This document shows positions 902 through 53,524 of a stretch of DNA of 64,000 nucleotides, one piece after another (position 1 is the stretch's first letter; each line of letters starts with the position of its first letter). Source of the stretch: Candidatus Bathyarchaeota archaeon. GTDB lineage: Archaea; Thermoproteota; Bathyarchaeia; Bathyarchaeales; Bathycorpusculaceae. Where the stretch lies: positions 1,696,001 through 1,760,000 of the forward strand of contig OY970280.1 in NCBI GenBank assembly GCA_963715865.1, read 5' to 3'. A model generated the notes under the pieces. That model did not search any database and was not told the DNA's origin. It worked only from the letters and a program-made list of their open reading frames with translations. Made by a program: the position numbers and the translations under genes.

Positions 902-1336
902 TCAAGTTTTCTTATGGAAATACCGGGCGTTAACCGTCAAGGTGTGACGCAGTAAATTCTCAGCATCCCCAGCCTTCTCAGCAACAACACTAATAAAATT
1001 AACGCCTGACAACCCAGTCTGGTAAGCATGAATAATATTTCGGATAAGCTCAACAATTTTCTCGCGATCACTAGCACAAGTTGATGAACTCTTCACAGTT
1101 ACTTCTACAGTGATAGGTTCATCAACCTGCCACCAACCCGGCGAAATAGGCTTGACCCGAGCAGGAGCCGCCTTGTACGTAGTAATCAAGTAAACCTGAG
1201 TTACCTGATGCAGCTGCTTAGGCAAATCATACTGCAGTTTACCCCAAAAAATACTTGCTTTCGGAACCGCCTGAGCATCAGCCCATTGGGCCTGCAGAAG
1301 CGCATTCAATTTGTCACTATTACTTAAAACAGACAT
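902..1336 (-). CDS. Tail terminator/completion-like protein
   Basis: 144 aa, directly upstream of the tail tube gene, ends in the typical beta-strand (HTLTVNARYF), GGTGA SD. Confidence 0.55.
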   Translation of the reverse strand: MSVLSNSDKLNALLQAQWADAQAVPKASIFWGKLQYDLPKQLHQVTQVYLITTYKAAPARVKPISPGWWQVDEPITVEVTVKSSSTCASDREKIVELIRNIIHAYQTGLSGVNFISVVAEKAGDAENLLRHTLTVNARYFHKKT

Positions 1337-20142: not shown

Positions 20143-20378
20143 GGTCTTTCCACTCCATCAACAACACCGAAAATATAGTGCCCCGCATCACTCTCAACCA
20201 CTATCAGAAACCTCAAAGCCGAAAGCATGGAAAAAGTCCATGCAAAAACACCCCGAAAAACAGCTCCAAAAAACTTTAAGCAGCCTTTCACATCCAACAG
20301 GTTACTACGTACATCAGCTAGGGCACAGAAAACTCTGCTATGTACATCACAGGCCCTAGCATGTACGTAGTAACTCAC
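20139..20378 (-). CDS. Hypothetical 79-aa protein overlapping the inverted repeat
   Basis: Strong GGAGG SD before GTG. Confidence 0.45.
   Translation of the reverse strand: MSYYVHARACDVHSRVFCALADVRSNLLDVKGCLKFFGAVFRGVFAWTFSMLSALRFLIVVESDAGHYIFGVVDGVERP
20301..20374. repeat. Long inverted repeat, replication-origin candidate
   Basis: GTTACTACGTACAT-CA-GCTAGGGC ... GCCCTAGC-ATGTACGTAGTAAC; AT-rich tract at ~20390-20500; downstream of the Rep-like gene. Confidence 0.8.
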
Positions 20379-20550: not shown

Positions 20551-21564
20551 TCATCTAACATAATCTCCAAGTTTCTTCTGGCCCTCAGCAAGACGTTTCG
20601 GGTCTTCCACATCACCAAGCTTACCTAAAACTTCCGTAAGCTTATTCACGTTGAAAGCAATCTTCTCAACCGCAGACTCAAGATTCTCAATCTTCCTCAG
20701 AGGCGACTTACTGAGTACATTATAGATAGCTTCCTGCAACCGCTCAACCCCAAGCAACCGCGAGTTATTAAATTTCAAAGCTTCACCAACACGCTTAACC
20801 TCCTGCTTCAACTCAAAACTCGCCTGCAACTTATCATGATCAGTGAAACCTTTCGAAATAACCTCCTCAAACTTTGTCACGGACATCGGACGAGTAATCT
20901 TGCGCTCCTTACGCACTAAGTTCTCTTCTTTCTGGTAAACCCGCTCAACCATACCAAACAAATCAAGTTTCGTGACACATTGAACCCCATCAATCCGCAC
21001 ACCATAGTAATCCTTGTTACACTCAAACGTGAGCAGTTCTAAATCATTAAGTTGCCAACCCAAATGATCCTCAACCACGTCAAACCAACGATGCAACGCA
21101 AGTAGGCAGGCATCATGACTCATCCCGCCAACATCACAAGCAACATACCCCGAAATCTTCCGCCTCTCACTCCCAAAACAAACATGAATCTTAACCCCCC
21201 CAACAAACTCGTCAACCTCCCAATGCTTCACATCTTGACAAACAAAACTCCGCAAAGAAATATTATGCACACAAAGAGGCACGAACCGCATACCATAGGT
21301 GATTTTGTTACAGTAACTTCCAACATACGGCTGCAGGACAAGCCCTTTCTCAAGCAGTTTACGACAGACAACCCTCACAGTAGTATATTGACCACGCCTA
21401 GGCTTCCTTGGAGCATGGATTATTCTGGCAATCTCTGCAGGTCTAAGCTCAACTTCTGAAGCATCGATAACGTGAAAGGCACGCGCCTCAATACCCCAGT
21501 GCCTTTCCGCTAAACTGTTTAAACTGGTGTTGCTAGGTGTCCGTTGAAGTATCAGATTTACCAG
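20551..21564 (-). CDS. wHTH plus putative Rep_trans-like replication initiator; start codon uncertain
   Basis: Frame stays open 186 nt above the annotated GTG and completes a wHTH (ELRPAEIARII...TVRVVCRKLLEKG). The C-domain has ExNxD, RxYxK and RxE motifs. Confidence 0.5.
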   Translation of the reverse strand: MVNLILQRTPSNTSLNSLAERHWGIEARAFHVIDASEVELRPAEIARIIHAPRKPRRGQYTTVRVVCRKLLEKGLVLQPYVGSYCNKITYGMRFVPLCVHNISLRSFVCQDVKHWEVDEFVGGVKIHVCFGSERRKISGYVACDVGGMSHDACLLALHRWFDVVEDHLGWQLNDLELLTFECNKDYYGVRIDGVQCVTKLDLFGMVERVYQKEENLVRKERKITRPMSVTKFEEVISKGFTDHDKLQASFELKQEVKRVGEALKFNNSRLLGVERLQEAIYNVLSKSPLRKIENLESAVEKIAFNVNKLTEVLGKLGDVEDPKRLAEGQKKLGDYVR

Positions 21565-21582
21565 CCAAAAAATGCAGCTCCG

Positions 21583-21788: not shown

Positions 21789-21791
21789 TTA

Positions 21792-21968
21792 CTACGTACA
21801 CTCCTCTCTCCGCTTACCATCCATCCTGACATCCCAATACTTCCCGCCAGGACAATGATTATAGCAAACGCAGCAATCATCGCAAAGCATCAGACGCCTG
21901 CCAAAACCGCTGCAACCAACAATCGGATTCCAAGTAAAATCCAAATACTCAATCTTAGTACGATTCAA
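21792..21968 (-). pseudogene. DUF5131 (phage Gp37/Gp68-like) N-terminal stub, 58 aa
   Basis: TKIEYLDFTWNPIVGC matches the family N-terminal signature; the rest of the domain is missing. Confidence 0.6.
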
Positions 21969-51347: not shown

Positions 51348-52271
51348 TTATTCTACGAGTTTTTCCCAGCTTGTAACGAAGTCAAGAACTTCTTGACCTT
51401 GCTTGCCGCCATAGCTCTTTAAGCGTTCTCGAACGTCAACCTGAGCAATTGCAGCTTTCTGGAAATCCTGCATCTGTTTAGCTTTGTCGGTTAAGTAAAG
51501 AATTCCGTCTACGCCTGCTCTTGCCATACGGACTGATAATGTTAAGAGTTCACTTGTGGTTGGCGTTTCTCTCGGGTCATCGCCTGGACCGATAACGTAT
51601 AATGCAATGTTGAGAGGTACGTCTTTGAAGAGTTTCTTGAAGTTACGGGTAAGCATTTCCCAATACCACGGTGTAGCGTAGTTTTTACTAAACATGACGA
51701 CGAGAAATTCGTCAGTTAACGGTGCCAAATCATCAAAATCGACGCCGAAGCGTTCATAGTTTGTAACTGGGTCTGGGAGAACGCCGATGACAAACTTTTT
51801 CTTCGCTCGGTCGCGTACTCGCTCGCTTACTTGCGCCATGTAGTCGGTGATTTCTTTTCTGCGCCATTCATACCAGCTTAAGCCACTTTTCGCGTGGAGT
51901 TCTTTGCAGCGCGGGCAAATGCAGTGACCGTGTTCTGCGAAGTGGATACTGTTTAGCCATATTCCCGGGCTCTTTCTTGCAACGTCTTCGATGTAATCTA
52001 ATTGTTCTGCACGGTGCTCTGGTTGGGTTGCACAGAGAACGTCCCATCGGACGTTAAAGTTGTCGTTTGTTCTCCATGCAGGACCTAGGTCTGACTGCGA
52101 AATCCAGTCTGGATGATTACGGGCAGTAACGTTGTCTCCGAAAATCGCAATGTTGCTGTACATTTCAGGGTGCGGTGGCATTCGTCTGCCTACTTCTGGT
52201 TTAACTCGGAAAAGGTCAAAGTCAAAGCCTGGAACTTTCTTTGCTTCAAACATGTATGTGCCGAATTTCAA
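51348..52271 (-). CDS. Glycoside-hydrolase-like TIM-barrel protein with CxCxxC motif
   Basis: WLNSIHFAE...HCICPRC, RFGVDF; TTG at 52271 has an SD-like AAGGT upstream. Confidence 0.6.
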   Translation of the reverse strand: MKFGTYMFEAKKVPGFDFDLFRVKPEVGRRMPPHPEMYSNIAIFGDNVTARNHPDWISQSDLGPAWRTNDNFNVRWDVLCATQPEHRAEQLDYIEDVARKSPGIWLNSIHFAEHGHCICPRCKELHAKSGLSWYEWRRKEITDYMAQVSERVRDRAKKKFVIGVLPDPVTNYERFGVDFDDLAPLTDEFLVVMFSKNYATPWYWEMLTRNFKKLFKDVPLNIALYVIGPGDDPRETPTTSELLTLSVRMARAGVDGILYLTDKAKQMQDFQKAAIAQVDVRERLKSYGGKQGQEVLDFVTSWEKLVE

Positions 52272-52480
52272 TTTGCTTCTACCTTTTTGAATCCAAGACG
52301 TTTGGCGCTGTAATAAAGTTTTGCATAATAGGCACAAAATTGGTTTCAAAAAATAAATACCTGTTTGGCGATTGCTCCGATGGCACAATACATGCTTACG
52401 CATAGTTATTAAGCATTAAACTATGGATTAGTCGTTTATTTAGAGAGTATTAAGCTAATTAGTTTAATCCTAATTAATAC

Positions 52481-52538
52481 TTACTACGTACATGCTAAGG
52501 CTATGATGTACGTAGTAACCTCAGAATGTACGTAGTAA
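52481..52538. repeat. Three copies of ATGTACGTAGTAA, homologous to the proviral inverted repeat
   Basis: 52481-52501 matches revcomp 20353-20373 at 20/21; 52504-52521 matches revcomp 20299-20316 at 18/18. Confidence 0.92.
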
Positions 52539-52783
52539 TAGAAATTTTATTTACCTAAACTTGGTGATTTAACAACAAAAAAAGAAAATGGAAGATAGTT
52601 CTATTGCTTCTTTAACTGTCCGTTTGTCATAGTGATTCTACAAGAAGAACCACATAGCCATCATGAACCTTGGGTACTATGACTTCGATGCCCAGAACAT
52701 CATGTCTTTCCTTGCGTTGCGGGAAGGTTTAAATAGAGATTATCAAGTTTGCATATCTTTATTGTAGAGTATTTGGAGTTGTT

Positions 52784-53209
52784 TTGATGAATGTAAAGCA
52801 AATTGTAAGAGCGGAACCTGTTTTTGTGGAAGTAGCTAAAACCAGTGAAGTCGAGAAAGGCAAAATGAAAAGTGTAGAAGTAAATGGAATTGACATCTTA
52901 ATAGCAAATGTAGATGAGCATTTCTACGCTTTAGATGATAGATGTGGACACATGAATGCTTTGCTTTCGATGGGAACGTTGCAAGGAAAGATTGTGACCT
53001 GTCCGTTTCATTACGCTCAATTTGACGTTACCACCGGACAGAAAACTAAAGATCCTGTGCAGGAGTCATTTAAGGGCATGGATAAACTGCCTGAAGATAT
53101 GCAGAAATTCTTGGTTTACGCGGAGAAGTTGGTGGATCCCGTTAAATCTTTTGACCTGCAAACGCATGAAGTAAAAGTGGAAGGAGACAAAATATTCATC
53201 AGAATTTAG
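52784..53209 (+). CDS. Rieske 2Fe-2S ferredoxin
   Basis: CGH...CPFH ligands. Confidence 0.9.
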   Translation: MMNVKQIVRAEPVFVEVAKTSEVEKGKMKSVEVNGIDILIANVDEHFYALDDRCGHMNALLSMGTLQGKIVTCPFHYAQFDVTTGQKTKDPVQESFKGMDKLPEDMQKFLVYAEKLVDPVKSFDLQTHEVKVEGDKIFIRI

Positions 53210-53524
53210 AGAACGGTTTGTGAACATCAGCCAAAAAAGGAAGATGCTCGCTAACTCTCCTATTATGTTAAAATGCTTTAAGCCTTGCTTTCATACTGTG
53301 TCTTAAGCTCCTTTTAGTTATTTCATACTAAAAAGTATGATTAACCATAGTTTTCTTGTTATTAACCGCTGTTTTCTATGTAAGCCAAAGCTTACCATGA
53401 CATAAACAGTAAAAAAGGAAAACAGGAGTCCACTAAATTCTAGCGATTGCCTACGCAATCTTTTTAGGGCAAAGTCCCTTTTAATCGCAAGTCTGCAAGT
53501 ATACAGAATTAAAATTGGATTCAG

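Follow-up and report, generated by a model that had tools for sequence, protein, structure and literature searches.

Why should a host chromosome carry, 32 kb from a provirus and between two host genes, what looks like a collapsed piece of that provirus? The site lies in a window of 64,000 nucleotides (positions 1,696,001-1,760,000) of G000, the genome studied here, a Bathyarchaeia genome in a single contig of 2.35 Mb. An earlier, sequence-only reading of this window took the site for an orphan copy of a viral replication origin and offered three explanations: that it is a relic origin (a), a decoy for the viral Rep protein (b), or the operator of a host regulator that the virus has plugged into (c). 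It had also counted the 12-mer TGTACGTAGTAA at seven positions and judged this to be far above chance. These seven are exactly the positions at which the word occurs in the window, and the excess is real: shuffled windows hold 0.14 copies on average, and none of 100 reaches seven. The orphan, on the other hand, does not survive closer comparison, and the origin finds no support in it.

Anatomy of the chromosomal site

Three 13-base arms, made of TTACTACGTACAT and its complement, span positions 52481-52538 (Table 1), with AT-rich DNA on both sides. Two folds are possible on the minus strand: a simple 38-nt hairpin, or an alternative 68-nt two-stem hairpin (-28 kcal/mol, z = -6.6) in which arm 3 pairs with arm 1. 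Aligned to the proviral minus strand (20302-20373), the site reads as two viral arms, matching at 20 of 21 and then 18 of 18 positions and joined by TA, which stands for the 36 viral bases between two TGATGTAC repeats; the viral loop thus seems to have been deleted between these repeats, just as had been proposed. The third arm after the pair and the AT-rich flanks were also correctly described, and the alignment bears out the view that one element exists here in two versions, proviral and chromosomal, the latter being the collapsed form. The junction of ACCTCAGA and an arm at the spacer recurs in a mobile, MITE-like element at genome position 361523.

Table 1. Window coordinates of the chromosomal site, its neighbors and the related proviral features
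Feature	Position	Strand	Remarks
Single exact 12-mer	1174-1185	+	inside a proviral ORF (902-1336, minus strand)
Proviral compound member	20302-20373		two perfect outer arms, one degenerate inner arm; extended 21-23-bp arms
Rep-like wHTH protein	20551-21561	-	true length about 340 aa
Single arm	21789-21800	-	directly before the start codon (ATG) of a Cys-rich ORF of 40 codons; flanked by the HerA-like and Rep-like wHTH genes
GHL10-like glycosyl-hydrolase-like protein gene	51348-52403	-	start 78 nt from arm 1
Arm 1	52481-52493		TTACTACGTACAT; inverted copy of the 13-mer word; identical in sister genomes G071 and G041
Centre (loop)	52494-52505		GCTAAGGCTATG; quasi-palindromic, of the CCTWAGG/AGCCYTAG type common to the family
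Arm 2	52506-52518		ATGTACGTAGTAA; pairs with arm 1 into a 38-bp perfect hairpin or cruciform
Spacer	52519-52525		CCTCAGA
Arm 3	52526-52538		ATGTACGTAGTAA; direct repeat of arm 2
AT-rich flank	52539-52600		minus strand holds the T-rich box TTTTTGTTGTTAAATCAC, which resembles (alignment) the subterminal box of the MITE-like element
Rieske [2Fe-2S] gene	52784-53209	+	followed by a P-type ATPase gene

The site sits between divergent genes, the GHL10-like and the Rieske gene. The GHL10-like gene is kept across the genus, but the region upstream of it is not. In the two sister genomes the whole intergenic region is retained with the arms unchanged (97% identity across the locus in G071, 96% in G041), the centre showing a single G-to-A change in G041. 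Because the three sister genomes are 97% identical over the entire intergenic region, a constraint on the site in particular cannot be demonstrated at this locus. Homology with more distant congeners ends at the start of the GHL10-like gene. In one of them, G062, the GHL10-like gene lies directly beside the P-type ATPase gene, with neither Rieske gene nor site between them, which means that the Rieske gene and the site were inserted, or else lost in G062. In G000 the Rieske gene and the motif cluster occupy the interval 52404-53524 between the GHL10-like and ATPase genes; the nearest homologues of the Rieske gene in G018 and G046 are at other places. The site is not a complete MITE, lacking CTGYCAAGTT ends; its alignable part comprises only the arm core and the T-rich subterminal box.

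Could the site nevertheless be left over from a rolling-circle origin, or be a decoy of one, with the provirus's Rep-like protein binding or nicking it, as explanations (a) and (b) would have it? The Rep-like wHTH gene has the compound element a short way downstream, and nick sites are usually built in this manner, with conserved arms around a conserved loop. The protein has more than 200 homologues in Bathyarchaeia, of ~340 aa, and a language-model feature search gave weak leads (0.77-0.80) to the Rep_trans and Phage_CRI clusters. On the other hand, Pfam gave no match and a PDB sequence search nothing useful, and fold searches with an AF2 model (pLDDT 69) matched only the N-terminal wHTH domain, which leaves a Rep_trans fold a candidate. 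G000 has the protein once, and neither the second provirus, nor the motif-bearing viral contigs that were fetched, nor G071 or G041 yielded it, though the motif occurs in all of these. Beside its homologues in two other species, a conserved downstream block is present but the arms are absent. Several hairpins per virus, placed between late genes, are likewise at odds with a single replication origin. The relatives without the first provirus, G071 and G041, lack the Rep-like gene as well, yet they keep the chromosomal site and dozens of further copies, a check that the sequence-only reading had itself suggested. The window site thus depends neither on the provirus 32 kb away nor on the Rep-like gene; it is most likely not a stray viral replication origin, and a relic or decoy of a Rep-driven origin is highly improbable. 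The Rep-like gene itself is open for 343 codons (20551-21582, minus strand), of which the first ATG, GTG or TTG gives only 275 aa; its start is either non-canonical or lost.

A clade-specific family in host and viral DNA

The site is no orphan. G000 contains 37 exact copies of the 12-mer and 79 with at most one mismatch, as well as 77 copies of an 11-base core, TGTACGTRGTA; for the exact 12-mer and the core the expectation is below one. The family word, TGTACGTRGTAA, is 12-13 bases long, and the arms (TTACYACGTACAT) usually stand head to head around a CCTWAGG-type centre. About 13 copies form hairpins of 38-40 bp of the same build as the window site, consisting of a 13-bp arm, a centre of 10-17 nt and an inverted arm, the centres having in common a quasi-palindromic AGCCYTAGG or CCTWAGG motif; lone arms usually retain the centre motif on one side. 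By a rough gene set, 25 of the 37 exact copies are intergenic, while intergenic DNA makes up only ~17% of the genome. The short intergenic palindromes are many, and they are clustered and alternate in orientation, as is characteristic of repeats of the REP/BIME type. The varying spacer length (10-17 nt) argues against a rigid dimer operator and fits monomer sites or a hairpin. T-runs lie directly upstream of only about 10 of 25 hairpins, there is no TATA-like or other fixed promoter box at a set distance from the word, and no replication-polarity or macrodomain pattern of copy positions was seen by eye. The sequence-only reading would have been undone by a frequent genome-wide repeat unrelated to elements: a genome-wide repeat it is, with 37 copies in 2.35 Mb, but one with a strong tie to mobile elements.

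Several other identities for the word were considered and dropped. Avoidance of, or attraction to, restriction sites is improbable, as TACGTA and GTAC occur at an unremarkable 0.88-0.91 of expectation. A solitary CRISPR repeat unit was rejected because G000 has no CRISPR-like array, only a proviral array with a 5-base period at 1685 kb. The sites have no C/D boxes, no bulge-helix-bulge and no ARAGORN tRNA, which disposes of box C/D sRNAs, BHB introns and tRNA fragments, and the single SSU rRNA gene of the genome is elsewhere, so that the three-copy element is no rRNA promoter.

At genome positions 2168978-2169997 (plus strand), an ORF of 339 aa with no Pfam match stands between the genes for a small wHTH protein and a HerA-like (DUF87) ATPase. 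Over 450 bp of this ORF the word is repeated in frame, with five copies or near-copies, among them a hairpin whose loop is 4 nt long. A variant of the arm, TTACWGAGTACAT with TAAAGG after it, is found more than once next to canonical ones: in proviruses (genome position 576867; window positions 20708-20720) and in a 900-bp insertion specific to G071.

How widely is the family distributed? The sister genomes G071 and G041 have 78 and 63 copies with at most one mismatch, against 11-12 for a control word, and 40 other genomes of the genus or order have none or one. Across one genome per species (185,579 species), the hairpin pattern matches 19 stretches, of which 16 are in metagenome-assembled genomes (MAGs) of Bathyarchaeia from peat and similar sites, mostly palsa_986 and SPRUCE 274; the other three, in bacteria, look like chance matches. 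The pattern also matches eight viral contigs of tailed viruses in IMG/VR, and a metagenome scan with a loose pattern of 16 palindromic bases gave, among the matches listed, at least one or two relevant loci beside chance matches. G018 had seemed a possible second "dialect" of the family, but its six copies of the G-variant, TGTACGTGGTAA, are mostly old, conserved coding matches and not hairpins, so that G018 is not a second centre.

The tie to viruses is close: 27 of the 77 cores lie within 93 kb of G000, made up of two tailed proviruses and one 36-kb stretch, a 13-fold enrichment. Terminase, portal and capsid genes are present in the window's provirus, whose arm sites lie at junctions of transcription units. 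Its compound member stands upstream of a 175-aa gene that opens the packaging and structural operon, and both proviruses have a compound copy directly upstream of the packaging module. In the viral contigs, hairpins or arms are found 1-66 nt past stop codons and 22-40 nt ahead of the next start, three to five such sites per virus between late genes; the preceding genes include those for the major capsid protein (major head protein) and the tail tube protein. Lone viral arms occur in both orientations within one-directional operons, with no fixed orientation to transcription. At the homologous position after the capsid gene, two related viruses have a single arm flipped, and at an orthologous host hairpin (1197813) the loop is inverted in G000 relative to palsa_986 and SPRUCE 274. 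These differences could come from extrusion or recombination of the palindromes in vivo; the alternative is that full hairpins have decayed, now to one arm and now to the other.

Two observations concern the surroundings of the proviral copies. Upstream of the 175-aa gene (window 20200-20300, minus strand) lies a conserved block, TTGGATGT..., followed by GCATGG-N-TTTTTCCATGC, which forms a small hairpin. This block is kept across species (L197:4230-4330; L198:4200-4300), with or without 13-mer arms, and could be a promoter or a pac site. In the second provirus, a tRNA 3' fragment comprising the T-arm and acceptor strand (genome 598514-598545) adjoins three copies of the word and is probably the remnant of an attachment site.

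Mobility, constraint and directional gain

How did the copies come to be where they are? An element of 70-220 bp, in which four arms are nested and inverted relative to each other, is present at three host loci (52.8, 361.4 and 1474.7 kb). In its ~220-bp form it has no ORF and ends in AAGCTGTCAAGTT and AACTTGGCAGTTT, which form terminal inverted repeats of about 13 bp. G071 has two further copies of this ~220-bp element at sites that are empty and uninterrupted in G000; an 8-bp duplication (AATAAACA) is present at one of the insertions, while the right end is truncated at the other. With its terminal repeats, filled and empty sites and target duplication, the ~220-bp element thus behaves as a MITE-like mobile element. 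Both the window site and the proviral compound element align to its core. No pair of its terminal repeats within 6 kb of each other, as an autonomous parent would have, was found in G000. A six-frame search for the Y1/RAYT transposase (PF01797) found it in G041 and G046 and not in G000 or G071, and a link to RAYT or IS200-IS605 was rejected on this ground. Copies of the family sit where gene order differs between genomes.

An end unit of ~50 nt (CTGTCAAGTTGNCGGTT ... AACTTTCGGTTG), seen at genome positions 361377-361425 and 1474681-1474730, also occurs alone. One to three copies are present in about half of 60 congeners without the 13-mer word, where only one flank matches G000, and the lone unit could be an older element end or an attachment site.

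Mobility is not the whole story, since the word is also retained and gained in place. Between two convergent genes at 1443714, the arms and centre of a hairpin are identical in three genomes, amid intergenic DNA with a 53-nt deletion, unrelated stretches, indels and substitutions, and viruses with homologous genes of only ~76% identity still have almost the same arms. Together, these cases show that the sequence is kept, and not only the pairing. Such variation as there is in the stem is concentrated at essentially one position (one arm has T or C there, its partner A or G), with 14 T-A, 21 T.G, 2 C-G and 7 C.A combinations; in the C.A cases the loop-based orientation was nearly tied in six of seven, and L065 scored 5 against 3. 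When the strand is set by gene direction, the G.U wobble falls on the mRNA-sense strand at six of seven independent viral positions, and in convergent contexts on the strand of the nearest gene in all four. On the G.U strand, T-runs of at least four follow 17 of 28 hairpins and A-runs 7 of 28. The strand of the wobble and the T-run bias are suggestive of a transcribed hairpin.

Exact 12-mers also lie inside five conserved host genes, for which the orthologous codons of 4-11 congeners were aligned. In all five, the congeners are one to three bases away from the word, whose exact form is the derived state, found in the G000 clade. Flanking sequences of these genic copies differ little in three of the five comparisons and are rich in indels in the other two. 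By a rough estimate, based on ~15 one-mismatch sites per genome and a stem-lineage divergence of ~6%, about 0.25 such gains would be expected, and at least five were seen. The gains are few (5-7), and all are common by descent within one clade. As these copies arose by one to three substitutions, the word has been gained directionally and not only inserted. Mobile insertion cannot make genic words, and a lone arm cannot fold; there must therefore be pressure, whether selection or drive, for the word itself, which in turn points to a trans-acting factor that reads it.

What might read the word

From these observations, we infer a protein that reads the word, an action of that protein on the DNA and, potentially, a regulatory effect at the window locus. 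The word would then be a clade-specific recognition site for a putative sequence-specific protein, spread by mobile DNA and by mutation. This is our tentative choice among the explanations, with a chance of being right that falls just short of even. The window site would be a compact representative, with three arms, of a family that is specific to the clade and based on a single word of 12-13 bases; this word would be read, as DNA, by a putative sequence-specific nucleic-acid-binding protein of the host-virus system. Copies would ride on mobile DNA, namely several tailed viruses and the ~220-bp four-arm MITE-like element, and would also arise by point mutation, even in conserved host genes. 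The window copy may derive from the core of the MITE-like element or of a viral compound element, and it probably came with the DNA that placed the Rieske gene between the GHL10-like and ATPase genes. Lying now in what appears to be a divergent promoter region, it could be an operator-like site. Explanation (c), a regulator's site common to host and virus, thus lives on in a modified form, not as first stated. As wHTH and other HTH genes are common in archaea, the ones nearby prove nothing about binding. Candidates for the protein include the ~340-aa Rep-like wHTH protein, a proviral Zn-ribbon/HTH_7 protein of 285 aa (genome 1687141-1687998), a tandem-wHTH protein next to the 361-kb element (361498-362355), a wHTH protein of 145 aa (2168455-2168892) and the 175-aa protein encoded downstream of the compound element.

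A recognition site does not account for everything. The conserved centre and the hairpin geometry are superfluous for a simple DNA-binding site, and the G.U pairs on the sense strand together with the T-run enrichment count against it and favour a transcribed RNA element. The main rival accordingly places the action in RNA, where a hairpin between cistrons or in an untranslated region (3' or 5') would serve as a signal for processing or stabilisation, or as something like a terminator, comparable to the RNase III sites of T7 or the REP and Correia hairpins of bacteria; in that case the leader of the GHL10-like mRNA, or of an upstream transcript, would contain the window copy. The close placement of the late-operon hairpins behind stop codons and ahead of the next start speaks for this, as do the strong folds (-24 to -40 kcal/mol, z = -5 to -7.7) and the states T-A, T.G and C-G at the one variable stem position. 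Yet it is the arm sequence that is kept, and not pairing alone, with variation confined to essentially that one stem position, and the lone arms, which do not fold, are common and have been gained by substitution inside genes. One class of viral sites has a T7 run before the hairpin, so that terminated transcripts would lack it; the proviral compound copy has its wobbles on the antisense strand; and Rfam has no family at gathering score for the window site and three MITE-like loci, the best sub-threshold match reaching 25 bits against a cut-off of 57 bits. We regard a transcribed stem-loop as unlikely, if by no means negligible.

Alternatively, the palindromes might be selfish mobile DNA without a cellular function, akin to REP/BIME or to miniature MITEs. 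The copies would be the footprints of an element colonising the intergenic DNA of host and viruses, and the window site a decayed copy. The ~220-bp element with its terminal repeats, duplication and filled and empty sites is what one would look for, and the copies at changes of gene order, the inverted loop and flipped arms, and the confinement of the family to one clade all point the same way. Several things make this distinctly improbable: the searches found no Y1/RAYT transposase in either G000 or G071, and in G000 no autonomous element ending in these repeats; the short host hairpins are stable across three genomes; and insertion can explain neither the exact genic words made by one to three substitutions nor a hairpin left intact amid decaying flanks. 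Those genic words would be explained, even in unrelated host genes, if the word propagated itself, either as a packaging or uptake signal under molecular drive or as host decoys that titrate a viral DNA-binding protein, but to such a self-propagating signal we give only a small chance. In its transfer version, DNA bearing the word would be preferentially packaged, or taken up and recombined, much as with DUS and USS, and the word would accumulate in genes and intergenic pairs. In keeping with this are the species specificity of the 12-mer, the inverted pairs close to the ends of genes (often with T-runs), the point mutations by which copies have been gained in coding DNA, and the position of the compound copy directly upstream of the packaging module in both proviruses. 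However, 37-77 copies are few beside the roughly 1,500-2,000 of known uptake sequences, and the strong viral enrichment with several copies per virus is unlike a pac site; that we know of no competence or transduction data for this group of Bathyarchaeia weighs on the same side. The chance that the word is a transfer signal is accordingly very small.

Is there precedent for such a family? To our knowledge, dispersed palindromic repeats, though well studied in bacteria, have hardly been described in archaea, and Bathyarchaeia are uncultured. The family fails at least one defining feature of each of the systems compared: REP/BIME, Correia elements, stoperators, HF2 repeats and uptake sequences. 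Uptake sequences (DUS in Neisseria, USS in Pasteurellaceae) are lineage-specific 10-12-mers, often in inverted pairs near gene ends, that accumulate by point mutation, including in coding DNA. The five genic copies with their one to three substitutions are a clear likeness, but the archaeal word has 25-50 times fewer copies and is enriched in viruses, not depleted, and we know of no uptake system in this group of Bathyarchaeia. The REP/BIME repeats of enterobacteria and pseudomonads resemble the family in being imperfect palindromes of ~38 bp, intergenic, species-specific and clustered in alternating orientation, with two arm types (here T and C; in REP/BIME Y and Z) and a position at points where gene order changes. 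They differ in being associated with RAYT (Y1/HUH) genes, which were not found in G000 or G071, and in far higher copy number; furthermore, the archaeal family is shared with tailed viruses, and its lone arms arise by substitution inside genes.

Like the Correia elements of Neisseria (PMC2649163), the ~220-bp element is small, non-coding and mobile, with inverted repeats, a location between genes and filled and empty sites between strains. Correia elements can form hairpins in transcripts and alter the expression of neighboring genes (PMC2649163). Unlike them, the archaeal element contains, four times in its interior, a separate 13-mer word that also occurs alone, and it has no known partner of the RNase III type, being known here from its DNA alone. 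The stoperators of cluster A mycobacteriophages, which are read by a monomeric repressor, are likewise asymmetric 13-bp words present in many copies in the short intergenic gaps of temperate tailed viruses (PMC9283540, PMC6550527). The archaeal arms, in contrast, mostly form inverted pairs, lone arms have no fixed orientation to transcription, and dozens of copies reside in the host chromosome and the MITE-like element. In halovirus HF2, finally, an archaeal tailed virus, the gaps between genes hold conserved repeats whose positions are shared by related viruses; these repeats contain AT-rich promoter motifs and were shown to be promoters (PMC8707807). The word described here has no such box at a set distance and is found in host DNA as well.

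The significance of the family lies in the way in which one 13-base word links three compartments, namely the host chromosome, a MITE-like element and several tailed viruses. Its directional gain, even in genes, points to a specific trans-acting factor common to host and viruses, which might be a regulator, an immunity protein or a packaging protein. If the word were a packaging or uptake signal under molecular drive, it would, as far as we know, be the first sequence of the DUS/USS kind in archaea; if the host copies were decoys, they would amount to immunity by DNA only. Whatever its function, the family marks changes of gene order between sister genomes and could serve as a practical marker for mobile DNA and rearrangements in metagenome-derived genomes.

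Some further observations concern the mobile neighborhood of the word. On contig C24 of G071, the element connects the DUF996 flank of the 1474-kb copy of G000 with the ferritin flank of the copy at 361 kb, which is either a rearrangement between copies or an assembly chimera. A segment of ~1 kb (genome 725545-726553), with two zinc-ribbon ORFs and a word copy of its own, is present in G000 and absent in G071, and it is bounded by a 10-bp direct repeat, AGTTTATATG. There is also a separate repeat family of ~18 copies genome-wide (e.g., 60614, 255175, 418420 and 1200568) with a common 33-base stretch, ATTGTTTGAACAAAACTTTTACGCGATCGAACA; this is probably the end of an IS or MITE, and one of its copies lies 200 bp from a motif site.
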